A stretch of DNA of 64,000 bases from Glaucostegus cemiculus (Eukaryota), in assembly GCA_976551045.1 (NCBI GenBank), contig CDPCPM010000106.1:24490001-24554000 (forward strand), read 5' to 3'. The translations under genes and the position numbers were made by a program. A model generated the notes under the pieces. It was not told the origin of the DNA and ran no database searches. It was given only the letters and a program-made list of their open reading frames with translations. Below, piece by piece: positions 5,926-59,164 of this stretch. The first letter of the stretch is position 1. Every line of letters begins with the position of its first letter.

Positions 5926-6135
5926 AAACTGCAGACACTGCAATCTAAAGCAAAAAATAAACTTCAGGAGCAACTCAGCGGGTCAGGCAGCATCTGTGGA
6001 GGCAGAGGGAAGATCGACTTTTCGGGTTGAGACCCTGTAGATTGGATGTAGGGTCTTGCCCCAAAATGTTAACTATCCATCTGCCTCCACGGATGCTGCC
6101 TGACCCACTGAGTTTCTCTAGCAGTTTGTTTTCTT
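5926..6135. repeat. Palindromic dispersed repeat (Penelope-related or MITE-like)
   Basis: Inverted arms actcagcgggtcaggcagcatctgtggaggcaga / tctgcctccacggatgctgcctgacccactgagt. Confidence 0.8.
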
Positions 6136-24800: not shown

Positions 24801-26344
24801 TCCAAAACCATTTAGCTGCATGATAAATTTCAGAGAGGATATACTGATGGTTTGACATCTATCTTATGCCATATTGATACCTATTGACCAACAACACCTG
24901 AAGAATACTGGCAAGATAAAACTGTGTGCTAACACAATAGGAGCTAACACAAACTGGAGAAGAGTTCAGAATTCACAGCCTCTGAATATGATCAGGCAAA
25001 GAGAACAATTTTATAAAAGAAAAATATAGTATATATTTATTGTAATTTTTTGAGGGTGTAGAAAGATGGATATGGGAAAATCAGTGGATGTAACATATTT
25101 AGCCTTCAGACAAAATTCCATAAGGTGCCAACACAAGAGATATTAACAGGAGAGCAGGGGTCATAGGATTGGGGAGATGTTAACATGAATTGATATCTGG
25201 TTAACAAAAAGTGAACAAACAGCAGCAATTAATAAGTAGATTTTCTAGCTGCTTGCCTGTTGCTAATGAGTGGTGTAAGTGCCAGACCATGGGCCTCATC
25301 CATTTACAATTTGTAGCACTGACCTTGTTGAGGGCACAATTTGTAATATATACAGGCTTGGTGATCCAAAGCCAGCTGGAAAGAAAGTTCTGAAATATAA
25401 CAGTGTTTAACTTCTCAGTGCCAATACCACTGATGGAGTCAAAATTGCACCTTAAAGTATATGAATCATCAGTTTTTGGGAGGAATTTTTTAACTCTTTT
25501 CTCTCTGTGCCTCTTTGACATTTCACTCAGAATAAAAGAGTGAAATGTTAACGAGGGACAAAGAGAAAAGAGACCCAAAGACAAAGAACAATTCATTCGG
25601 TGCAGAGTGAGCACAAATGACACAAGTGCTAGCTACTCACCCGTTGTTAACAGTGAACTCACCTTCGCTACTCCACCCCATCCCCCTCACCACACTATCG
25701 AAAACTGCTCCCCATCCACAACAAGGCAGCTCAACCAAAATCTTTCCAAGATGCAAACTACTTCTGAAGAAGTTTTGAAACGGAACAAACAGCTTCCTCA
25801 ACACATTTCCAAAAACCCATATTTACATAAGAGCTGGCAACGTATCAAGGAAGTATCATCATACATCAATCACAGAAAACACAAAAGGATGACAAATATT
25901 TGGTGATTGTATTTTGTTTGCAAAACTGAGCTGATATAGTTTAGTTTGATGTTAGCTTCCTAAGTATTACATATGCTCCCCTTTCTTTCTTGAATCAATT
26001 CAACTGCCTCTCTTGTAATAGTTTACAGTTTTATTTTATTATTACAAAATAAACTTTATTTATCATAAAAAAAACTGTATACAACAATAAAACAGTGAAA
26101 ACTTTTACACTCGTGTATGGATCAATCATTAGTGTTCCCTTTATTAAAAAACCACAGCACCAATGCCACTCATGCGGCTCCCTGGGGTGCTACCCCAATC
26201 CCATATTTACAATATTTAAGGGCTTCCTTGCCTGACCCCACCCCTCCCTCTCAAGTGGCAGAACAACCCTAAACTGTAGTCCTTCCATTGCTTTACGAAA
26301 TGGCTGGGTTAACATATCATACTGTACATGCTTATGGAACTTTC

Positions 26345-32884: not shown

Positions 32885-33618
32885 GTTAAGTCCCGGGGCC
32901 AGATGGGATATATCCAAGGTTATTATGGGAAGAGAGGGAAGTGATTGCTATGCCTTTGGTGATGATCCTTGCATTTTCACTGGCAACAGGAGTAGTGCCA
33001 GATGATTGGAGGGTGGCAAATGTTATTCCTTTGTTAAGAAAAGGAGTAGGGATAACCTGGGATTTATAGACCAGTGAGTCTTACTTCAGTGATGGGCAAA
33101 TTATTGGAAAAAATTGTTAGGGACAAGATTTATGAGCATTTGGAGAAGCATAGCTTTGTGAGGGGCAGGTCACGAGTCTGATTGAACCCTTTGAGGATGT
33201 GACATAACACATTGATGAGGGTAGAGCAGTGGATGTGGTGTATATGGATTTCAGTAAGGTGGTTGAAAAAGTTCCTCATGATAGGCTCATTCAGAAGGTC
33301 AGGAGACATGGGATCTAGGGAAACTTGGCTGTATGGACTTGGGATTGGCTTACCCATAGAAGGCAGAGGGTGATTGTAGATGGAGCATATTCTGCCTGGA
33401 GGTCAGCAACCAGTGATGTTCCACAGGGATCTGTTCTGCGACCACTGCTCTTTGTGATTTTTATAAATGACTTGGATGAGGAAGTGGAGGGGTGGGTTAG
33501 TAAGTTTGCAGATGACACGAAGGTTGAAGGGTCGTGGATAGGGTAGAAGATTGTCATAGGTTACAACAGGATAGAGACAGGATGAAGACTTAGTTGTATA
33601 GGTCTATGTTCTATGTTC
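32885..33618 (+). mobile_element. CR1-type LINE RT fragment
   Basis: [40 protein letters not shown]; (ctatgtt)n tail. Confidence 0.9.
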
Positions 33619-34020: not shown

Positions 34021-34092
34021 CTAAAAGAAAGTTAATATTCAAGCATATTACAACTGAATCAAACCATTAGCATGTAAAATCACTATACTAAG

Positions 34093-34924
34093 TGTTACGA
34101 AGTAGCTTACTATAGGCAAATATCCCTTTAAGATGGGACATTGTGTGTGTGCGCCTATAAGAACGTATTACGTCAACAGAAGACTAACGTGATGAGGTCA
34201 TTACACGAAAGAAAAAGAGAGGAGAGAGAGAGAGACAAACAGACGGAGAGAGAGAAGAAGGAGAGACGGCAGCCTGTTTTGTTTCTGTCAATGGATGAAG
34301 GACAGTAGCTGTGTTTGCCACTAAAATCTGTGGATGGATTTCTGGAGTAGTCCAGTGGAGTTCACTTTGTCGGTAACCTGTAGAAGGACACAGGTGTTTG
34401 CGTGGATGACTACATTTTGGATGCTCTTCAGAGTGGCAGATACTGTGGAACAAGGTGACGGAATTCACTTCGCTGCTAACCTGTAGCAGAACACAGGTAT
34501 TTGCATGGACAGTCACGATCCAGGAGTTTTCGGGGTGAGAAAGTCACTACCGAGTTAGCCCTGAAGTGTCGTTCGAGTTTCGAGTGGAACATTCGGATTT
34601 CGTGATTCCTCTCTAATCTCTCTCTATATCTATGTTTTGTCTTCGGTGGATGGTGCTTGTGAAGAAGCCTTTATTCATGTTTCACCTTACGGCTTATTGA
34701 ACTGAACTTTAAGAACTAACTCCTGGACTTGGAGTTTAGGAATTCAACACGCACACACGACAAGTAGTTTTGGGGTTATAGTTTAAGATTCCAATATTTT
34801 ATTGTGTACTAGTATACTAACTTTTTATTCTTATTTTATGTATTATCGGATGTAGTTATTAATAAAGTAGTTTTAACACTGAAGTTTGAATTGGTGTGCT
34901 TCTTTTGTTGCTGGTTTCGTAACA
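34093..34924 (+). repeat. 5' LTR, 832 bp, chimeric
   Basis: 9-bp inverted termini; AATAAA at 34861; left part matches the 3' LTR, right part matches the nested inverted LTR. Confidence 0.93.
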
Positions 34925-34929
34925 AAATT

Positions 34930-35378
34930 CTCACCCCGAAAACTCCTGGATCGTGACTGTCCGTGCAAATACCTGTGTTCTTCTACAGGTTAGCAGCAAA
35001 GTGAATTCCGTCACTTTGTTCTACAGTATCTGCCACTCTGAAGAGCATCCAAAATGTGGTTGTCCACGCAAACACCTGTGTCCTTCTACAGATTACCGAC
35101 AAAGTGAACTCCACTGGACTACTCCAGAAATCCATCCACGGATTTTAGTGACAAACACAGTTACTGTCCTTCATCCATCGACAGAAACAAAACAGGCTGC
35201 CATCTCTCCTTCTTCTTTCTCTCCGTCTGTTTGTCCCGCTCTCTCTCTCTCCTCTCTTTTTCTTTCTTGTAATGACCTCATCACGTTAGTCTTATCTTCT
35301 GTTGATGTAATACGTTGCACACACACACAATGTCCCATCTTAAAGGGATATTTGCCTATAGTAATCTACTTCATAACA
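34930..35378 (-). repeat. Inverted left half of the LTR (about 450 bp)
   Basis: Reverse complement of the LTR from its start to ...GGGGTGAG; ends ...CTACTTCATAACA. Confidence 0.92.
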
Positions 35379-35671
35379 TCGGCCTTAGCTAATTCTTTAG
35401 CTTTAGCTCGGGTTACTGCACAAGATGGATAAACGTCTGCCTCATTCTCAGATTCAGTAAAGCTTGGTTTAGTTGTTAACTGTACCACAGAAACAAATTC
35501 TTCACCTGCAAGGTCTTCACCTGCAAGAAACACCCTCCACTGGTAAACTTGGTCGTATCCCTATCTCAACAGGTCCTTCTACGAACTTTGATTTTAAAAT
35601 CACCTTGTGCAAAGGGACAAACATGGTATCACCTGTAACACCTCACACTAGATTTACCTCACCAGTTTCAG
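35379..35671 (-). pseudogene. Inverted pol fragment: protease C-terminus and linker (ETGEVNLV*GVTGDTMFVPLHKV...PVEGV/DLAGEE...YPSCAVTRAKAKELAKA)
   Basis: Its first ~53 nt duplicate 37726-37778; it continues with the sequence missing between 37778 and 38955. Confidence 0.9.
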
Positions 35672-35901
35672 CTTATTGAACTGAACTTTAAGAACTAATT
35701 CCTGGACTTTGAGTTTAGGAATTCGACACACACACGACGAGTAGTTTTGGGGTTATAGTTTAAGATTCTAATGTCTTGTTTTGTACTAATATACTAACTT
35801 TTTGTTCTTATTTTACATATTATCGGAAGTAGTTATTAATAAAGTAGTTTTAACACTGAAGTATGAATTGGTGTGCTTCTTTTGTTACTGGTTTCGTAAC
35901 A
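35671..35901 (+). repeat. Right part of the original 5' LTR, directly before the PBS
   Basis: Matches the 3' end of the 3' LTR; ends TTCGTAACA. Confidence 0.92.
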
Positions 35902-35905
35902 AAAT

Positions 35906-35923
35906 TGGGGGCTCGTCCAGGAT
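35906..35923 (+). other. Primer-binding site for tRNA-Pro (TGGGGGCTCGTCCAGGAT)
   Basis: 17/18 match to the canonical Pro PBS TGGGGGCTCGTCCGGGAT, 4 nt after the LTR end. Confidence 0.93.
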
Positions 35924-36083
35924 GTTCCCAAGATTAATGAGTGTCGTTCTGGGATCCAGTCCAAAGATTGATTAGGGTGGCTTGCAGTCAAACTTAAGAC
36001 TGGTATTGGAGGTCTGAGTTTGGACACATTGGGGTTGGTCCAATAAATTCTCTTAATTGGCGTGTGTGTGGAAACCAGTAACA

Positions 36084-37778
36084 ATGGATGTGTTTATGAA
36101 AAAACCCACCCCAAGTGGATTGCAGAGAATGAAGAAGTCTGAATTATTAAATCTTGCTGCAGAGCTAAAACTTGAGACGGTAACACAATCTATGAGAAAA
36201 GCAGATATCGAGAGAATAATAGCTGGTCATTATGTGAAGATGCAAGTGTTTGAAGAGGGAGTAGTAAAACAATTTCCTGGCAGTGAACAAACGATTTCTG
36301 ATGCTCAAATTCAGTTAGCAAAGATAGAGGCTGAAAGGGAACAAGCAAAGATACAAGCTGAACAAAAGAAATTAGAGCTAGAATCTGAACGAGAAAGGGA
36401 CCGATTGAAATTTGAGGCTGAAGCAGAGCAAAGGAAACTAGAATCTGAACGAGAGTAAAGGAAGCTAGAATCTGAATGAGAGCAAAAGAAGCTAGAATCT
36501 GAACGGGAATGATTGAAGTTTGAGGCTGAAGCAGAGCAAAGGAAACTAGAAACTGAACAAGAAAGGGAACGATTGAAGTTTGAGGCTGAAGTAGAACAAA
36601 GGAGACTGGAATTTGAACAAAAGAAACTAGAGGCAGAGGAAAAGAGGATGGAATTAAGGAGGATGGAGCTGGAAAGTAAGGAAAGGGAGAAACAAAGGAA
36701 ATATGATTTAAGACTGAAGAGACAGAGTTCAGATTCTGATTCTGATGATGAGTTTTCAGCCAGTAGGGAGGTTAGATTAGTCCCTCCTTTTGATGAAGAT
36801 CAGGTTGAACAGTATTTCCAACATTTTGAAAAGGTTGCTACGAGTTTAAATTGGCCAAAGAGGAGATGGGCTCTTATGTTACAGAGTGTGATTAAAGGCA
36901 AAGCTCAAAAAGCTTATTCTGCTTTGTCTGTGGAGGAGGCAGCTGATTATGAAAAGGTAAAACAAGCAATCTTGAAAGTGTATGAGTTGGTACCAGAAGC
37001 GTACAGACAAAAGTTTAGAGATTTGAAGAAAAGTTCAGATCAAACATACATGGAGTTTGCCAATGGAAAGAGAATATGTTTTGAACGATGGTGTATGGCG
37101 AAAGATGTAGTTGATGATTATAAGAAATTGGCAGAATTAGTTTTAATAGAAGACTTTAAAAGATGTGTACCAGCTGAAATAGCTGCATACCTAAATGAAA
37201 AGAATGTGGACACTTTACAAGAAACTGCTAGGTTGGCAGATGATTATGCTTTAACCCATAAATTCAGATGGGGACAAACTAAAACCTTTCAAAGGAGTTA
37301 CAAAGACAATCCAGGTAAACCAGAGATTAAATTGGGAGATAATCTGAAAGGGAAGGATGACAAGAAGCCAGTGCTGGAGAAACCAGTTGAGCGTCTTTGT
37401 TATTACTGTAAGAAGCCTGGTCATATGAAATTTGACTGTTCTGTTTTGAAGAAAAAGCAAGAAAAGGGAGCTGTGCCAACTGCCTGTTGTCAAGTTATTA
37501 AACCCGAAAATAAAAGAGGTTTCGGGGAGGTTGTGAAAGATCAGTCCTTGCTAGAGATGAAGTCTGAAAAGTTGGATGAGGTGAGGGAGGAATTCCGTTC
37601 ATATGTATCAGAAGGTTTTGTTTCACTGAAGGATGGGTCACCCCAGGTACCAGTGAAAATCCTTAGAGATACTGGAGCTTCCCAACCTCTCTTGCTGGAC
37701 AGTGTTTTAAATTTTGGTAAGGAAACTGAAACTGGTGAGGTAAATCTAGTGCGAGGTGTTACAGGTGATACCATGTTT
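36084..37778 (+). pseudogene. gag-protease: coiled-coil repeats, SCAN-related capsid region, CCHC knuckle, aspartic protease
   Basis: YELVPEAYRQKFR; CYYCKKPGHMKFDC; LRDTGAS; in-frame stops at 36456, 36477 and 36510; cut off by LTR sequence at 37779. Confidence 0.92.
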
Positions 37779-38118
37779 CATTACAAGAAAGAAAAAGAGA
37801 GGAGAGAGAGAGAGAGACAAACAGACAGAGAGAAAGAAGGAGAGATGGCAGCCTGTTTTGTTTCTGTCGATGGATGAAGGACAGTAACTGTGTTTGTCAC
37901 TAAAATCCGTGGATGGATTTCTGGAGTTGTCCAGTGGAGTTCACTTTGTCGGTAACCTGTAGAAGGACACAGGTGTTTGCGTGGACAACCACATTTTGGA
38001 TGCTCTTCAGAGTGGCAGATACTGTAGAACAAAGTGATGGAATTCACTTTGCTGCTAACCTGTAGAAGAACACAGGTATTTGCATGGACAGTCACAATCC
38101 AGGAGTTTTCGGGGTGAG
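37779..38118 (+). repeat. Internal LTR fragment (left half lacking its first ~105 bp)
   Basis: CATTACAAG...GGGGTGAG matches the LTR; followed by AATTT and an inverted full LTR. Confidence 0.92.
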
Positions 38119-38123
38119 AATTT

Positions 38124-38954
38124 TGTTACGAAACCAGCAACAAAAGAAGCACACCAATTCATACTTCAGTGTTAAAACTACTTTATTAATAACTACATCC
38201 GATAATACGTAAAATAAGAATAAAAAGTTAGTATATTAGTACACAATAAAATATTAGAATCTTAAACTATGACCCCAAAACTACTTGTCGTGTGTGCGTG
38301 TCGAATTCCTAAACTCCAAGTCCAGGAATTAGTTCTTAAAGTTCAGTTCAATAAGCCGTAAGATGAAACACAAATAAAGGCTTCTTCACAAGCACCATCC
38401 ACCGAAGACAAAACATAGATATAGAGAGAGATTAGAGAGGAATCACGAAATCCAAATGTTCCACTCGAAACTCAAACGACACTTCAGGGCTTACTCAGTT
38501 GTGACTTTCTCACCCTGAAAACTCCTTGTATGTTGACTGTCCATGCAAATACCTGTGTTCTTCTACAGGTTAGCAGCAAAGTGAATTCCGTCACTTTGTT
38601 CCACAGTATCTGCCACTCTGAAGAGCATCCAAAATGTGGTTGTTCACGCAAACACCTGTGTCCTTCTACAGGTTACCGACAAAGTGAACTCCACTGGACT
38701 ACTCCAGAAATCCATCCACGGATTTTAGTGACAAACACAGTTACTGTCCTTCATCCATCGACAGAAACAAAACAGGCTGCCATCTCTCCTTCTTCTTTCT
38801 CTCCGTCTGTTTGTCTCTCTCTCTCTCCCCTCTTTTTCTTTCTTGTAATGACGTCATCACGTTAGTCTTATCTTCTGTTGACGTAATACATTGCACACAC
38901 ACACAATGTCCCATCTTAAAGGGATATTTGCCTATAGTAATCTACTTCGTAACA
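38124..38954 (-). repeat. Full-length nested LTR in inverted orientation
   Basis: Reverse complement of the whole LTR; followed by CCGA and resumed pol. Confidence 0.95.
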
Positions 38955-41085
38955 CCGAGAATTCTACACAGTCTGAAATTGTTCCTTGTGATAGTCCTAA
39001 ACAAGAGGAAAATTATGATGATTTGTCTGACACTTTTTTGTCTTCACTGGAGGATCAAAGTTTTGGTAGTGGGCCTGAATACAAAGATTTGTCTTTGTCA
39101 AGGAAAGAATTTATGGTGGAACAGAATAAAGACCCTGAACTGACTGAACTGAGGGAAAAAGCACTCTCATGTGAGGAAATTGAAAAAGTGCCAGTTGGAT
39201 ATTATGTCAAAGATGGATTGTTAATGAGGAAATGGAGACCACCTCATGTCCCTGTGAATGAGGAGTGGAAAGTTATTCATCAGGTTGTAGTTCCTAAAGT
39301 TTATCGGGATGAGATTTTAAACCTGGCCCATAGCATGCCTTTAGGTGGTCATTTAGGGGTGAATAAAACTGTGGGGAAGATTTTGAAACAATTCTATTGG
39401 CCTGGTTTGAGAAAGGATGTGGTGATGTTTTGTCGAACCTGTCATACATGTCAGATGGTAGGTAAACCAAATCAAAAACCCCCTGTGGCTCCTCTGAAAC
39501 CCATTCCTGCTTTTGGTGAACCCTTTTCAAAGGTGATTGCGGATTGTGTTGGACCATTGCCAAAGACTGAAGTTGGGAATCAGTCCGTGAGGAATGTCCC
39601 TAGGACATCTGTTGTTGACAATGAGGAAGGCCAATGTAGACCAAATATTGTTTCAGCAAGGCTAGAAAACCAAAATATCTTGGAGTACCTTGAGACAAAG
39701 TTGGACCATTTACAAGATTCACAGAAACGGCAGATGAAACAGTTACTTTTAAAATTTAAAAATCTTTTTCCCAATGTGCCAAACAAAACATCAATAATTA
39801 CCCATGATGTTGACGTTGGGGATGCAAAACCAATCAAACAACACCCATATCGAATGAATGTGGATAAGAGTAAACTTGTTGATCAGGAAATTGAGCATAT
39901 GTTAGAAAATGATATCATCAGACGTTCCAGTTCAAACTGGAGTTCGCTCTGTGTTATTGTGCCTAAACCTGATGGAACCATTAGATTTTGTACAGATTAC
40001 AGAAAAGTGAATGCTGTGACAAAGTCGGATGCATACCCCATTCCAAGGGTAGATGATTGTATGATAGAGTGGGGACAGCCAAATTTCTTACAAAGATTGA
40101 TTTACTAAAAGGGTACTGGTGTGTTCCATTAACAGAGAGAGGAAGGGAGATTTCTGCCTTTGCAACCCCTTCTGGATTGTATGAATACAATGTTTTGCCA
40201 TTTGGAATGAAAAATGCCCCAGCAACATTTCAAAGAATGATTAATTCAGTGATTCATGGGTTAAAACATACAGATGCCTACATTGATGATCTAGTGACAG
40301 GGAATGATACATGGGAGGATCACATTATTGCATTAGAAAGGTTGTTTGAAAGACTTTCCAAAGCTAACCTTACAGTCAATTTGGCTAAAAGTGAATTTGG
40401 CCATGCCACTGTGACATATCTTGGTTATGTTGTAGGTCAAGGCAAGTTAGCCCCTGTTCAGGCAAAAGTTCAAGCAATATCTGAATTCCCTGTTCCTACA
40501 GGTATCAGGACTGTTAGAAGATTTCTGGGAATGGTTGGATATTATCGGAAATTTTGTAAAAATTTTGCTGATATTGCTCTTCCCTTAACTAATCTTCTGA
40601 AGAAGGGAGTGAAATTTGTTTGGACAGATTCTTGTCAAGAAGCATTTGAGAAGCTAAAAGCCATTTTGTGTTACTATCCTGTGCTCAAGTCACCTGACTT
40701 TGAAAAGCCATTTTCATTAGCAGTAGATGCCAGTGATGAAGCTGCAGGAGCTGTGTTGTTGCAGAAGAGTGACCTTGATGATATTGACCATCCTGTAACT
40801 TACTTTTCAAAGAAGTTTAATGAGCATCAGAAGAATTACTCTACGATAGAGAAAGAATTGCTTTCACTTGTTTTAGCCTTACAACATTTCAATGTGTATG
40901 TTTGCACAACTCAGAAACCGTTGATTATATACACAGATCATAATCCGTTAGTGTTTCTGAGCTGAGTGAAAAACATAAACAGACGGCTGTTAAACTGGAG
41001 TTTAATTCTGCAAGAGTTTGACCTCATGATAATTCACATTAAAGGCAAAGATAATGTAATTGCTGATTGCCTTTCTCGATGTTAA
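38955..41085 (+). pseudogene. pol remainder: integrase (HHCC zinc finger, core deleted), reverse transcriptase, RNase H
   Basis: AHSMPLGGHLG..CRTCHTC and DCVGPLPKT, then a break near 39584; RFCTDYRKVN; frameshift near 40060; YIDD; AVDASD..YTDHNPL; TGA at 40963; ends NVIADCLSRC*. Confidence 0.93.
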
Positions 41086-41210
41086 ATGAAAGACTTGTAT
41101 CGTTACTAATCTGATATACTGTTATTATGTAGGATGATAATTATTAACATCACTAACTATATGCGCGGGTAATAATTTATTTTTGGAAAAAATTTTGTTT
41201 GTGTGGGAGG

Positions 41211-42046
41211 TGTTACGAAGTAGCTTACTATAGGCAAATATCCCTTTAAGATGGGACATTGTGTGTGTGCGCCTATAAGAACGTATTACATCAACAGAAG
41301 ATAAGACTAACGTGATGAGGTCATTACAAGAAAGAAAATGAGAGGAGAGAGAGAGAGACAAACAGACGGAGAGAGAGAAGAAGGAGAGACGGCAGCCTGT
41401 TTTGTTTCTGTCAATGGATGAAGGACAGTAACTGTGTTTGTCACTAAAATCCGTGGATGGATTTCTGGAGTAGTCCAGTGGAGTTCACTTTGTCGGTAAC
41501 CTGTAGAAGGACACAGGTGTTTGCATGGATGACCACATTTTGGATGCTCTTCAGAGTGGCAGATACTGTGGAACAAGGTGATGGAATTCACTTTGCTGCT
41601 AACCTGTAGAAGAACACAGGTATTTGCATGGACAGTCACGATCCAGGAGCTTTGGAGGTGAGAAAGTCACTACCGAGTTAGCCCTGAAGTGTCGTTCGAG
41701 TTTCGAGTGGAACATTCAGATTTCGTGATTCCTCTCTAATCTCTCTCTATATCTATGTTTTGTCTTAGGTGGACGGTGCTTGTGAAGAAGCCTTTATTCG
41801 TGTTTCATCTTACGGCTTATTGAACTGAACTTTAAGAACCAATTCCTGGACTTTGAGTTTAGGAATTCGACACACACACGACGAGTAGTTTTTGAGGTTG
41901 TAGTTTAAGATTCTAATGTTTTGTTTTGTACTAATATACTAACATTTTGTTCTTATTTTACATATTATCAGAAGTAGTTATTAATAAAGTAGTTTTAACA
42001 CTGAAGTATGAATTGGTGTGCTTCTTTTGTTGCTGGTTTCGTAACA
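41211..42046 (+). repeat. 3' LTR, 836 bp
   Basis: Follows the PPT; TG...CA termini; followed by TSD TAAG. Confidence 0.95.
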
Positions 42047-43759
42047 TAAGGGATAGCCACTTGTATCACAGCATGGAATTTAAAAATATTTAATATTAAG
42101 AATGTGCCCAAAATTGGACCTCTCTATATTCCTGCCATATATTGTTTCTCTCTTGTTCTGCTCCTTTCTTCAATTACTTTGCTGCATGACTTCAAACACT
42201 ATCTACAGATTGTTCACTGTCCATCACACAATGAAGTTGGCGATTGTTTAATGCACCAGATGAAGATGCACTTGGTGTGACTGTCCAACATCCTCTTTGA
42301 ATGTAAATGTTAAAAGCCACTAATCAATTTATTCATTTCCAAGACAGAGGCCATTCAACAATTCTTTCTCATCTGCTTCAAAATATACCCAGGCACCTAC
42401 CCTAGTCATGATGCCTCATTTTATTTTGAGGACCTATATCCAATCCATTTGATCTCAATCCCAATCACTACCGATGAGTTCCCTTCCCTTCCTGGCTTTC
42501 ATGCTTACAGGCATTGTACATCGCTCCCCCTTCCAAAACACTGTTCTCTCCCTTTTAATGTCACTTTACAACATCTTCAATAAACCCACTTTGAATTTTC
42601 TACCTCTCCATTTACTATCCTGTTCTCGCTCTCTGATTCAGAAAGATATATCAGCTGCAACTCTATTCAAAATCCCCTGTTCAAATTCCATCACTGTATT
42701 GCAAAAATGATTCTCCACACAACCATAGAAATATTCAACATGGTCTATAAACAGGTATGGAAAGATCAATGATGGCTCTGTGCACAGCCAAAGAAATGAT
42801 CCTGTGGATAATGTTACCAATACTACCTTTTTTTGTGCACCTCCTTCCAATTTCCCTTATTGTTGACAATCTTTCTCTGCCTTAATTTATCTTGCTTCAT
42901 ATGGGAACTTGACATGGAGTTCTTATCTCTTAAAAGGCAATTGTCACCACAGAACAGTTCTGCCTGTAATTGTGACAGTAAGCACTGCTATCACTGTATT
43001 CTCCAAGTCACCACTAAGACAATTCTAGACCGACCTTTCTGTGTATTTAAAACATTCAACTATAACTGAAGCTTTTTTTGGCAGACAAATATTTTCCTTG
43101 ATTTCCCATGGAAAGGACAACAGGACATAACACTTTACCAAATGCAATTGTCACCTTGTCCCTTATGGCTTAAATGCATTGAGAAAAATGCTGGTGGATC
43201 CAGCAATGGAGGTACAATTCATATGACAGTTTTATAAAATTAAGAAATCACACCCTAAACATGTAACAATCCATGACAGAGCTGGCAGAAGCAATGGGCT
43301 GTGGTGAGGGATGAGGCCAGTAGGAGATAGCTAAAGTGAGCTGAAAATTGTCAAGAGTGCCAGTCATAAGAATTATACAGCAGGGAAACAGGCCCTTCAG
43401 CCCAACTTGTCCATGCAGACCAAGATGTCTATCTGAGTTAGTCCCATTTGTCTCTGATTGTCTTTTTTATTGCACTAATGTCTTATTTTCTTTTCACTGT
43501 CCTGTATAATTTATGTATAATTTATATTCTGCATGCTGCCTGTACCTACATGCCTGTGATGCCACTGCAAGCAAGTTTTCATTGTACCTCTACCTCACGG
43601 GACTTGTGCACGTGACAATAATCTTGACTTGACTTGCTTTGCATCAGAATTTCTATTTGAGCTAGTCCAAATTGTTCCGTCCAAGCTAGTCACATCTGCA
43701 GTATAATCTAGGAGTAGGGAAAGCTTCTGAGAGGAAGGATATTTCTTGTATTTCCCTAT

Positions 43760-46080: not shown

Positions 46081-46934
46081 TGCATGCACCATTTGCATAC
46101 TGCAGCTTGACTGCTGAAATTGGGTAAACTTGGTTCTGAAATGTTGCTGCTATATGTTGAACTGCTTCCTGATACTTAACTCCACTGCTGTGGAAAGTTT
46201 ATTGGAAGGCATGGATTGGAATGCGTGACTGGTAATCAAGCCAGTAAATCTTCTAGCCCACACCTTTCTTTCTTCAGATTAACTTCCTCATCTCACTGCT
46301 CCTCTACTTCTAACTGCAACTTTCTCTTTCAGCTATTCCGCTCCTGCCTGTTAGAACACTTATGCACAAGTACTTCAGCACTGAACACAAAATATAAGAC
46401 ATAACAAACAATGTGATCATGATAGATGATACCAAAGATGTTGATATTAACTTGAAGAGCAGCAGCTGAGGCAGTGACTCCCTCTGCTCTGCTTAATATA
46501 TTGGGATAATCAGATAGGAAAGATCACAACTGATCTGAAGCCCTAAGTGAGCAAGTAGCAGGCTATAATGGCCTGCACCTGCTCCTACTTCTTATCTTCT
46601 TAAAGTGCACACTTGTGAAAAGTAGTTTAATTTATGGAAGAGTTAGAAAATTCCCAGATCATTCCTGCCATGTTTAGGGGTATGTTTGACCATTTTACTG
46701 CATAATGCATTTTGGAAAGGATTATATTTAAATAAAGCTCAGACAGAAGATTGATAAAATGCAGATGAACTATGCATTTAGTTTTGCACAAAGGATTAAT
46801 AATGAAAAGCAATTCAGTAGTTTAAGGACATCTGATCTTGGTTTTGAAGATGGAGGTTGTGGATATTCAGGAATGATTTGGCATAGCTCGTTTCCTTCGA
46901 GTTGTTTTGAAAACAGGGACAGAAATCCAAAATT

Positions 46935-47085
46935 AGAGAAAATACTCAGCAGGTCAGGCAGCACCAGTGGAAAGAGAAAGAGAGTTAATGCATCAGGTCA
47001 AAGACCCTTCGTCTCCCTCTTTCCACAGATGCTGCCTGACCAGCTGAATGTTTCCAGAATTTTCTATTTCAGATTTCCAGCATCT
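46935..47085. repeat. Palindromic dispersed repeat, same family
   Basis: cagcaggtcaggcagcaccagtggaaagag / ctctttccacagatgctgcctgaccagctg. Confidence 0.75.
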
Positions 47086-49539
47086 GTTTTTTTTTCATTT
47101 TCAGGAGCTGAAATAAACACTGCAGTCAAATTTCTAATTGGAAAGATGTTGGGATTGGCATTCATCCTGACTTTGAAGATAATTGTGCTAGAATTATGTG
47201 TCTTGACAAGACTGATAGTATCAATTGAATCAAGTAATCAAAACAAAAGCCTTTTCAACTTTTTGGGAATAAAGAAACTTGATGTTTCAAATGTCGGACA
47301 AATGAGTAAATTGTCCACCTGCGCAAAATCTAGTGAAAGAAATAACATGTATTTTGATAAGAAGACAAGATTATTACATAACTTTGGACGTAGCATCAAT
47401 TTTACATCATTCGTTAAATCTGAAATGTAAAGGTTATGGTATTTATTTACAGCTGTGCCTGCCACCCTTAAATCTACCTAAGGCAATCTTGAACTTGGAA
47501 CATCTACTATAACATAAGCACTAAGGAGCCTTGCATCTTGTGGCAGAATGCCACTCTTTGGGGTAGGAGATGGGCAGGGATGAAATTCCAGATGCCAGTG
47601 TTACAGAAGAGTGTAATTTTAAGCTCCAAATGCCAGCCATGAGCTAAAGCAGTGAATAAGTTGTCTTTTCCTCAGCCAAGCCTGCCTTGTCCTTGACCTC
47701 AGGTAAAGTGACTATCTCCTAGAATGAGTAGTTCAAGCGCTTGATTTCATCAAGCCAGATTTGTTGATGGGTTCTTAATCAAAGTACAGCAGCACTGTTC
47801 TATGGTGTCTAACATTCCTTAGACTTAGCATAGCCAATGGTTTATTTAAAATTAATATTCCAAGGGATTGAGTAACACAGTCAGTTAAGAGAGTGAGCAG
47901 AAAATTTAAAGTCATAGAGCCAGTGCCTTGTGGACAAAAATGGTGCACAATGTGTGGGTGCATATTTGTAATGGAAATCACTATTGTTACTCAACATTAG
48001 CTGCTTACAGGTTAATTGCCGGTTGGGTTCCTCTGGTTATTGCTATGGTTCTACAATGTTGGAGAACTGTCATCCCTTATGAGCCCCTGTGCATGTTATA
48101 ATCCATTGACAATAAGGCAATAATCCAAGTTGTCCTTGCACAAATCCAGATTGAAACTCCCTTCTGCAATTAGGTGTTGTTTGTGCTGCAGTGCCAGCTC
48201 AGAGATCTGCTCTCAGGTGCTGCATCCTGGCTGGGTTCATAAAGGTGTTTGGACACTGCTTGCACGTTGTACTGGATAATATTCAAGTTCTGTACAAAAA
48301 TCTTGTTCCAAATTGGTCTTGGATTCTTCCAAACTCCTTGGGATTAATTCCTGGCTTTCTGGCAGGTTCCCAATATAATAAGCATTAAGTGCATAGCATC
48401 AGCCTTCTTTAGTCCACAACTCTAATGAATCCAGTTGTAATTTCACCCTTTGGTGTACTGGCACCAGAGAAACCCTTGACCCTATCCTGACTGAAGGTCA
48501 TATTTGCTCTCTGTCCACCACATGCAGACCTTATCTCTGTGTATCTTTTAACTTGCGTGTCAACATTTGGTGGTTGTGTGATTGAAATTGAGAGACAGTA
48601 TGTTTAAATCAATCTTTTTGTTCTCCCTCCATTGCCCTATTAAATATATTCTTGAGTATCTGAAAGGCAAAGCCTAAAGCAGTGATGAGAGGAAGGAACC
48701 CAAGTGGTGCCTACTCACATCTTGTAAATCAAAACAGATTGTGGGATGGGGAAGGAGCTAGATCTGGAAATGAGGATTAACTAGGAGGTAGCAGTCATTT
48801 TGAAAACTTAATCCCTGCCTTTGACCATGCCCCAACAATTGATATTCCAGTCACAGTTAGCACCCTCTCTATCAGTGTTAGTGCATGCAAACACCTTGAC
48901 TGAGACGGAAGCAGGTATGTCAGAGACTGTCACACAATACACTTAATGACATGATTGTCATGGTTGAATGGCTTCCAGTCTGTGCTAGCTGTGAGAGGAG
49001 AGTGTGAGGCTTGAAGTACTGCTAAGTAAATGAAGTTGAAGTAAAGTATCCGAACGTTAGATACAAGTCCCAATTGATAGACTGAGTTGAACATTGTGGC
49101 TACTCATCCAATAAGTAGGATATGACATTTGAAGATGCATTCACCACTGATACAACTTCTTTCAGTGTTACATCCAGGCTTCCTGATGATCGACAAGTAC
49201 CAGACACACTCACTCTTCACCCTGAATCATGTAACTATCAGGAAACCCTTACATCTTAACTCACAGATTCTGAATGAATTGGGCTCACAGCCTAATGTGT
49301 CGCAGTCTAATGTTGTGCTTCATATACATCCAAGAAATGGCAGACACAGGTCTCTCACCAGAGTTACAGTAGGAGTATGGCAGAACATTTAGAAACTCAG
49401 GACTATACCAAACCAGGCCAAAACCAAACTGGAAGTGCCTAATGAATTATCTATGTAAAGATGTATCAGTTTAATTTGTTTTTGAAATTAATTATTTTGT
49501 CATTGCAATTGTTTGGTGAACACGTGAAGAATTTGTTAC

Positions 49540-51957: not shown

Positions 51958-52225
51958 AAACAAAGGACTGCAGATGCTGGAATCTAGACGAAAAAAACTA
52001 TGATGCTGGAGGGTCTCAGCAAGCCAGGCAGCAACCGTGGAGTTAACTCTATGATGCTGGAGGGTCTCAGCAGGCCAGGCAGCATCCGTGGAGTTAACTC
52101 TATGATGCTGGAGGGACTCAGCAGGCCAGGCAGCATCCGTGGAGTTAACTCAATGATGCTGGAGGAACTCAAGCAGATGCTGCCTGGCCTGCTGAGTTCC
52201 TCCAGCATCATAGTGTTTTTCATTT
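51958..52225. mobile_element. Palindromic repeat with an internal 51-bp tandem array and a 13-bp flanking duplication
   Basis: Units start at 51998, 52049, 52100 and (partial) 52151; inverted arm 52172-52223; TGACAGATTAAAG on both sides. Confidence 0.88.
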
Positions 52226-56714: not shown

Positions 56715-57910
56715 TAATTTGAGTTTTTTGAAGAAGTAACCAAGAAGGTCAATGAGGACAGGGCAGTAGACATAGTCCATGTGGACTTCAGTAAGACCTT
56801 TAAAAAGGTTCCACGTGGTAGGCTGCTATGGAACATTAGATCACGCGGGATCCAGGGAAAGCAATCCAATCAGATACACAATTGGCTTAATGGTAGGAAG
56901 CAGAGGGTGATGGTGAAAGGCTTTTTTTGGACTGGAGGCCCACACCTAGTGGTGTTCCTTGGGGGTCGGTGCTAGGCACATTACTATTTGTCATCCATAT
57001 CAACGTATGAGAAAGTAAAGGCATGGTTAGTAAGTTTGCGGATGACACTAAACTAGGTGGTGCTGTTGATAATGAAGATGGTTATCAGGATTTACAGAGG
57101 GATCTTGATCAGCTGGGTAAGTGGGCCAAGGAATGGCAAATGGAGTTTAATTCAGATAAGTGCGAGGAGTTGCATTTTGGGAAGGCAAATGAGGGTAGGA
57201 CTTTCACGGTCAATGGTAGGGACCTGGGGAGTGTTGTAGAACAAAGGGACCTAGGAGTACAAGTGCATGGTTCCCTGAGAGCGGCACTGCAGGTAAACAG
57301 GGTGGTGAAGAAAGCTTTTGACATACTGGCCTTCATCAGTCAGGGCACTGAGTATAGAAGTTGAGATGTTATGTTGCAGTTGTACAAGACATACATGAGG
57401 CTACATTTGGAATATTTTGTTCAGTTTTGTTCACCCTACTGTAGGAAAGATGCCATTAAGCTTAAAAGAGTGCAAGGGAGATTTACAAAGATGTTGCCAG
57501 GACTTGAAAGATTGAGTTATGGAGGGAGGTTGAGAAGGTTGGGACTTTTTCATTGGAGCGTAGAGGAATGAGAGGTGATCTTATTGAGGGGATCATGTGG
57601 GGCATAGATAGTATGCACAGTCTTTTTCAGAGTTGGGGATTCAAGAACTAAAGGGCAAAGGTTTGTGAGAAGGGAGAGATTTAATAAGAGCCCCAGGGGC
57701 AACTTCTTCACCCAGAGGATGGACAGTATATGGAATGAGCTGCCAAAGGAAGTGGCTGAGGCAGGTACATTAGCAACCTGGATAGGAAAGGCTCAGAAGG
57801 AAATGGGCCAAATGTGGGCAAAATGGGACTAAGTCAGATGGGAATTTTGGTTGGCAGGTAGCAGTTGGGCTGAAGGGCCCATTTCCATGCCGTATGATTC
57901 TAGGACTCTT
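56715..57910 (+). mobile_element. CR1-type LINE, 3' 1.2 kb
   Basis: DFSKTF.KVP.GRL; [11 protein letters not shown]; WQMEFN.DKC; QRDLGVQV; LEYFVQF. Confidence 0.92.
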
Positions 57911-58356: not shown

Positions 58357-59164
58357 TGTTACGAAGTACTTACTACCGGCAAATATCCCTTTAAGATGGG
58401 ACATTGTGTGTGTGTGTGCAATGTATTACGTCAACAGAAGATAAGATGAACGTGATGAGGTCATTACAAGAAAGACAAACAGACGGAGAGAGAGAAGAAG
58501 GAGAGACGGCAGCCTGTTTTGTTTCTGTCGATGGATGAAGGACAGTAACTGTGTTTGTCACTAAAATCTGTGGATGGATTTCTGGAGTAGTCCAATGGAG
58601 TCCACTTTGTCAGTAACCTGTAGAGGAACACAGGTGTTTGCATGGATAACCACATTTTGGATGCTCTTCAGAGTGGCAGATACTGTGGAACAAAGTGACA
58701 GAATTCACTTTGCTGCTAACCTGTAGAAGAACACAGGTATTTGCATGGACAGTCACGATCCAGGAGTTGTCGGGGTGAGAAAGTCACTACCAAGTAAGCC
58801 CTGAAGTGTCGTTTGAGTTTTAAGTGGAACATTCAGACTCATGATTCCTCTCTAAGTTCTCTCCATATCTATGTTTTGTCTTCAGTGGACAGTGCTTGTG
58901 AAGAAGCCTTTATTCGTGTTTCATCTTACGGCTTATTGAACTGAACTTTAAGAACCAATTCCTGGACTTGGAGGTTAGGAATTTGCCACACACACACGAC
59001 GAGTAGTATTTGGGGTTATAATTTAAGATTCTAATATTTTGTTTTGTACTAATATACTAACCTTTTGTTCTTATTTTACGTATTATCGGAAGTAGTTATT
59101 AATAAAGTAGTTTTAACACTGAAGTACGACTTGGTGTGCTTCTTTTGTTGCTGGTTTCGTAACA
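58357..59164 (+). mobile_element. Solo LTR of the same Gmr1-like family in STPG1 intron 1
   Basis: TGTTACGAA...TTCGTAACA, 808 bp, TSD CTAC (58353-58356 and 59165-59168). Confidence 0.95.

Follow-up and report, generated by a model that had tools for sequence, protein, structure and literature searches.

A chimeric 5' LTR and a templated inverted duplication in a dead Gmr1-type retrotransposon with a nested insert ended by U3 on both sides

Gmr1-like Ty3/Gypsy retrotransposons are described as carrying a SCAN-bearing gag, a protease, an integrase placed ahead of RT-RNase H, and LTRs with a TSD (10.1101/2025.03.03.638093, PMC4131045). In human DUP-NML-INV/DUP rearrangements, which have been modelled as two steps, BIR and then MMBIR, the case of individual BAB8920 combines a switch between oppositely oriented, 93% identical LINEs with another that shows microhomology (PMC6902434). 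Several aberrant products of LTR-element cDNA are also known. Complex elements of the form LTR-internal-LTR-internal-LTR arise in plants before integration (PMC1950507; 10.1101/452573), and autointegration joins the processed CA end to a target, giving inversion circles that do not integrate (PMC7197481). End-to-end clamping by RT has been described (PMC8363836), Ty1 cDNA ends with extra, cDNA-only bases are end-joined (PMC11372161), and host extension of the unintegrated viral 3' end underlies aberrant HIV proviruses (PMC5041404).

Within the window, that is, the whole 64,000-nt stretch of Glaucostegus cemiculus DNA that was analysed, self-comparison and inspection of TSDs delimited an element (34093-42046) whose TG..CA LTRs bear 9-bp terminal inverted repeats and which is flanked by the 4-bp TSD TAAG (Table 1). 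Pfam placed SCAN (PF02023, E 1.3e-12, above cutoff) and zf-CCHC in gag, followed by Integrase_H2C2 and then RVT_1 and RNase H, a family being found in 4/5 frames scanned. The order from the region of the DTG protease motif through Integrase_H2C2 and RVT_1 to RT_RNaseH was colinear with the sawfish protein P0001, the best match among 921 homologues (77% identity), which by itself would make a ray or shark the probable host. Judged by domain order and SCAN, the locus is a Gmr1-type Ty3/Gypsy element, sharing with the Gmr1-like group the SCAN gag, the PR-IN-RT order and LTRs with a TSD (10.1101/2025.03.03.638093, PMC4131045); three 4-bp TSDs of this family (TAAG, CCGA and CTAC) are present in the window. 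Unlike Gmr1-like elements, this is a dead copy with a nested insert, frameshifts and a missing integrase core, and it was called dead because of the gag stop, the frameshifts and the loss of ~260 integrase-core codons. Relative to P0001 (residue 663 to 925), the codons absent at about 39585-39598 belong to the integrase core and C-part. AAAT sits between the LTR CA and the PBS at 35906-35923. No tRNA gene was found in the 64,000-nt window.

The LTR contains an internal repeat of ~50 nt, at 34356-34406 and 34459-34509 (103 nt apart), and two joints in public contigs skip 104 nt, consistent with a deletion between the repeat units. A TATA-like stretch at 34155-34161 is present in the outer LTRs and deleted in the nested LTR, in its duplicated arm and in the solo LTR, and a single AATAAA lies near the LTR end, at 34861; the positions of these two signals suggest a short U3 and a long R. 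The GA-rich tract of the solo LTR, which is 6-10% away from the other copies, is shorter by ~25 nt. Imperfect tandem repeats occupy 36321-36626, within the coiled-coil stretch of gag, where the stop near 36456 is located.

Table 1. Coordinates of the element, its rearranged parts and the related solo LTR in the window
Feature	Position	Strand	Remark
Left TSD TAAG of outer element	34089..34092	+	right copy 42047-42050
5' LTR left part (A-left), outer-element type	34093..34574	+	begins with 9-bp terminal inverted repeat
Homology-based switch interval, outer LTR to nested inverted LTR	34575..34730	+	from informative sites
5' LTR right part (A-right), copied from nested LTR C	34731..34924	+	from distances, bootstrap 98
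AAATT seam: PBS-preceding spacer, predicted unprocessed cDNA end	34925..34929	+	TT shared with inverted arm
Duplicated fold-back arm (B): LTR 5' 451 nt, inverted, intact LTR start	34928..35378	-	
Left TSD CCGA of nested insert, surviving only in the duplicate	35379..35382	-	
Inverted pol (protease-linker) duplicate, matching P0001 residues 352-448	35383..35671	-	frameshifted near 35525
Original right part of 5' LTR (E)	35671..35901	+	G at 35671 is the return microhomology
Spacer AAAT (4 nt) and primer-binding site (PBS)	35902..35923	+	PBS 35906-35923, 17/18 identical to MLV tRNA-Pro PBS
gag (SCAN, zf-CCHC) and protease region	36084..37778	+	stop near 36456
Main fold-back arm (D), 5'-truncated by later 344-nt deletion	37778..38120	+	1-nt microhomology at 37778
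Main seam AATTT	38119..38123	+	reverse complement of 34925-34929
Nested inverted full LTR (C)	38124..38954	-	
Right TSD CCGA of nested insert	38955..38958	+	
Integrase N-part (H2C2), core gap of ~260 codons near 39590, then RT and RNase H	38957..41082	+	frameshift near 40060-40110
Purine-rich tract upstream of 3' LTR	41198..41210	+	putative PPT
3' LTR (F), unrearranged	41211..42046	+	
Solo LTR of the same family, TSD CTAC	58357..59164	+	outgroup

The sequence-only reading had proposed that the left part of the 5' LTR shares variants with the 3' LTR and its right part with the nested inverted LTR, and the variants that it quoted were all found at the positions it gave. Seven LTR pieces were aligned, among them the whole 5' LTR (A, 34093-34924), the 3' LTR (F), the nested inverted LTR (C) and the remnant E. 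One of A, F and C was deviant at 66 sites, 50 of which paired A with either F or C. The best split gave 23 A=F against 7 A=C sites on the left and 2 against 18 on the right (Fisher 6e-6), and the max-chi value was reached in 0/5000 permutations (p 2e-4). In alignment columns 1-494, A differed from F at 14/482 positions (2.9%) and from C at 27/475 (5.7%), whereas in columns 651-845 it was closer to C (6/194, 3.1%) than to F (17/192, 8.9%); in the latter columns, E differed from F at 6/192 (3.1%) and from C at 11/192. The trees agreed with the site counts, A grouping with F for the left part (bootstrap 75), and A with C (bootstrap 98) and F with E (bootstrap 91) for the right part. The switch in signal along 34093-34924, sought by alignment, permutation test and trees, was thus found, the 5' LTR is confirmed as a chimera of an outer-type left and a nested-LTR-type right part, and the reappearance of the original right part in E was borne out by its distance to F and its place in the tree. 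With the solo LTR as reference, the last A=F sites were 34556 (non-CpG) and 34574 (CpG), and the first firm site at which A equals C and differs from E was 34731, so that the interval originally proposed for the switch holds; the sites inside it are CpG-prone or private.

The chimeric LTR is followed by an inverted copy of the nested fold-back and of pol, 0.94-1.10 kb in length. The junction at 34918-34937 is, as had been noted, the exact reverse complement of 38111-38130, and backward copying of about 1 kb through the fold-back and pol agrees with the size of the duplicate and with its inverted pol piece, which spans P0001 residues 352-448; the main copy reaches ~367-372 and resumes past the insert. 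The duplicate keeps 344 nt (236 of pol, 4 of TSD and 104 of LTR) that are deleted from the main copy, and a single mismatch is found in the 53-nt pol duplicate. Because these 344 nt, with the left TSD, were lost from the main copy and kept in the duplicate, copying ran from pol as donor into the LTR as recipient, and the template was undeleted. At the return junction exactly one G is shared, which matches the 1-nt microhomology claimed earlier. The start of E is equivalent to 34692, inside the switch interval, and therefore exit and return lie within about 120 nt of each other. Read from the arrangement of its parts, the event is a templated inverted insertion with little or no net loss.

Regarding the nested insert, the sequence-only reading had rightly recognized an inverted LTR, and had left unmentioned its two U3 ends, its CCGA TSD and the position of the seam at a predicted cDNA end. 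The TSD is found at 35379-35382 (reverse strand) and 38955-38958, the separately aligned pol pieces abut on P0001 without a gap at residues 448-454 and overlap by exactly 4 nt, and 2 contigs of run X4 carry an uninterrupted allele of the CCGA site; therefore the nested insert is an integrase product. Both of its termini are LTR 5' (U3) starts, the insert being composed of a 451-nt forward arm, the seam and a full inverted LTR, whereas an ordinary solo LTR or nested element presents one U3 and one U5 end at its TSD. The seam keeps AAA and a shared TT after CA and brackets the AAAT spacer that directly precedes the PBS. In general retroviral biology, if not for this family in particular, a tRNA-primed cDNA is expected to end at such a spacer, and we infer that the seam at CA-AAAT represents an unprocessed cDNA end.

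The duplicated arm follows C at 9/13 diagnostic events in columns 1-430 and at 0/5 in columns 431-461. The C form in columns 431-461 was matched 29/30 by the loose end of an X4 contig, from another organism, and for this reason the C form near the seam is regarded as a family haplotype. Different template molecules for the two arms would be the simplest reading; later gene conversion is a possible source of the haplotype difference. A cluster of C-only changes at 38515-38535 was considered as a private micro-switch and rejected: no local template of at least 11 nt was found, and the X4 contig carries the cluster, which marks it as haplotype. The insert would have originated from an unprocessed U5 end (CA-AAAT) that either was elongated along the first 451 nt of a second LTR copy, in inverted orientation, or became joined to them. 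The product would have had U3 at both termini, and integrase could have taken either end since the 9-bp terminal repeats are symmetric. It may have been LTR-sized from the start or may have been reduced later via LTR-LTR recombination.

Like the three-LTR elements of plants, the fold-back would combine two template molecules in one integrated unit with a TSD and chimeric LTRs (PMC1950507; 10.1101/452573). Those elements are tandem, and the word 'inverted' is absent from the excerpted text of PMC1950507, whereas the fold-back is inverted, U3/U3-ended and joined at the U5 end. It would resemble the inversion circles of autointegration in being LTR-element DNA that was inverted while still cDNA (PMC7197481), but an autointegration product was rejected: the AAA that follows CA at the seam is absent from the inverted-LTR parent, and the product integrated with a TSD, in contrast to the circles. 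As in RT clamping and Ty1 end-joining, a completed cDNA end appears to have been joined via a few paired bases, and extra, cDNA-only bases mark the join; those cases come from biochemistry or from insertions at host breaks, whereas here a U3/U3 fold-back with a TSD lies in the germ line (PMC8363836, PMC11372161). Among the matches listed from the open-access literature (PMC, bioRxiv), none described a U3/U3-ended fold-back with a TSD, although subscription papers and supplements may hold one.

Short public contigs of four runs (X1-X4) were aligned to 34762-35735; X1 and X2 represent one sample, and the shares of runs X3-X6 were small (0.05-0.17). Eleven joints were listed, 8 of them deletions within one piece. 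In the other 3 of the 11, the end of the forward LTR is linked with inverted LTR sequence, and all of them leave at 34927-34928. The joint from 34927 to 35167 had a depth of ~60 and was present in both X1 and X2, while that to 35153 (depth 3.9) was seen in X1 only and that to 35189 (depth 5.2) in X2 only. The bases preceding targets 35167, 35153 and 35189 are not AAAT, and therefore these joints are not plain nested insertions; their sides measure 19-27 nt at a likeness of 90, and they were flagged 'between: not known' and come from one sample. A plain nested-insertion joint (34924 to the inverted LTR) was absent from the 11 listed, which means that joint detection is incomplete and may be biased. 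The chance of ~1e-5 for three joints within 3 nt presupposes that detection is uniform and is given no weight here, and summed contig depth was not used as copy number. At a depth of ~60, compared to 4-5 for the others, the joint 34927-35167 possibly represents a fold-back derivative of this family that became amplified.

These joints suggest a recurrent product of cDNA end-jumping or end-joining that would still be able to integrate. In its full form, the proposal is that the Gmr1 family repeatedly makes U3/U3 cDNAs, the U5 end CA-AAAT being extended on the inverted partial plus-strand LTR of another molecule, and that these integrate with a normal TSD and plant germ-line palindromes that seed rearrangements, at least one type having possibly been amplified; we regard the chances for and against it as evenly balanced. 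The nested fold-back itself could alternatively derive from a full-length nested element rearranged after its insertion, by a switch at the 9-bp repeat that flipped the 3' LTR and a deletion that removed the interior. Inverted repeats are unstable and the terminal repeats do supply 9 bp of homology for the flip, but such a history, which concerns only the fold-back, needs the deletion to end by chance within ~2 nt of the cDNA end. In addition, the two LTRs of one element are the same at the outset, whereas the arms carry different family haplotypes next to the seam, and three further seams in public contigs lie at the same base. We hold post-insertion rearrangement to be rather unlikely.

For the locus as a whole we favour a scenario in four steps, to which we assign a probability of roughly 0.7. 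Insertion of a Gmr1-type element (TSD TAAG) would have been followed by that of an aberrant cDNA from a sister subfamily, which would have entered the pol of the first element in inverted orientation (TSD CCGA). Then, in the chromosome, the 5' LTR would have supplied a free 3' end, near LTR position 480-640, that annealed to the inverted LTR, 94% identical and 3.6-3.9 kb away, copied 0.94-1.10 kb beyond the homology via seam, arm, TSD and pol, and rejoined the rest of the 5' LTR through one G. Finally, a deletion at the base of the palindrome would have taken 344 nt out of the main copy. The make-up of the duplicate places the nested insertion before the duplication; the chromosomal nature of the latter is what we infer. 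Self-comparison of the window found the 3' LTR unrearranged, as expected of a post-integration event, which fits a chromosomal origin.

The third step was probably a chromosomal switch that was primed by homology and ended in a return through microhomology, which would make it similar to human DUP-NML-INV/DUP. Common to the locus and BAB8920 are a switch between opposite, ~93-94%-identical repeats that yields a chimeric repeat, and a second switch via microhomology that restores direction (PMC6902434). The locus differs in scale, with ~1 kb copied over 3.7 kb in one retrotransposon and not megabases, and in its gains: instead of two, one is clear, and beyond it at most 39 nt were gained or ~120 nt replaced, depending on which side of the return point the switch lies. 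Of the FoSTeS/MMBIR event proposed from the sequence alone, the homology switch, the backward copying of ~1 kb and the microhomology return stand, whereas the label itself is no more than plausible: with the return point (34692) inside the switch interval, one-ended break repair (SDSA and end joining) fits equally. A switch at the fork and repair of a one-ended break produce identical scars.

The duplication could also have been made during reverse transcription. A parent RNA with the inverted insert would hold a minus-sense LTR, to which plus-strand strong-stop DNA could jump by homology, copy ~1 kb and jump back, altering only the 5' LTR of the daughter. On this account the 3' LTR should be intact, the return should fall close to the exit, and the outer and duplicate pairs should be of equal age, all of which is seen; template switching is able to build complex single-TSD elements (PMC1950507; 10.1101/452573). 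The outer LTR pair differs at 21/713 sites and the duplicate pair at 13/587 (p 0.49), and the arm differs from C at 9/417 (p 0.57); the outer and duplicate ages being inseparable, the step order is not given by ages and a switch during reverse transcription is allowed. Nevertheless, a pol-disrupted RNA with a 450-bp stem would have to be packaged and copied in trans. The three arms have 6, 10 and 8 private changes, none of them A>G, which argues weakly against passage through double-stranded RNA, and the divergence of the arms (9/417, 6/310) is not above that of the outer pair, unlike the expectation for an older parental insert, although not significantly so. Taken together, we consider an origin during reverse transcription improbable and retain the chromosomal switch.

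Mis-assembly of a high-copy repeat is very improbable. Copies of the family are very numerous, with 25,775 contigs from run X1 on 974 bases, and none of the contig pieces listed for 34762-35735 bridges the junctions of the locus itself, an absence that was not counted as evidence of mis-assembly because the contigs are short and a further 51,024 pieces fell outside the listing. The evidence for the assembly is all internal: the duplicates differ at 13/587 sites, which upholds the earlier argument from small differences against an artefact, 344 nt and a TSD missing from the main copy are present in the duplicate, and all TSDs and frames are coherent. Hardly credible is a return junction made by integrase through one-ended insertion of a cryptic end, since the CA at 35669-35670, which does end the copied pol strand directly before the shared G, is expected by chance in ~1 of 16 cases, the sub-terminal sequence is not that of an LTR end and no TSD flanks the return junction.

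Other features were observed in the window. The region at about 32900-33585, just upstream of the element, has a weak match to 56752-57051 and is presumably a truncated RT fragment of a CR1-type LINE. Imperfect palindromes occur at 5954-6132, 25494-25572 and 51990-52221; the first and the last of them look alike on inspection, with GGCAGCATC..GATGCTGCC arms, and are possibly of a MITE- or SINE-like kind. A 232-codon open frame at 46732-47430 (+), which has no Pfam match, is possibly a host exon.

The duplication records, in compact and fully legible form, the kind of two-step switch that underlies inverted complex rearrangements in humans, and on copies like this one neither the dating of LTR pairs nor the annotation of solo LTRs works. 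Taken alone, it is one dead locus and a small-scale case of a known rearrangement class, and the main interest lies in the fold-back that acted as donor. If the recurrent seam is true, the cycle of LTR retrotransposons would gain an error product that is able to integrate, and the cDNA end of the family would become readable from genomic fossils.
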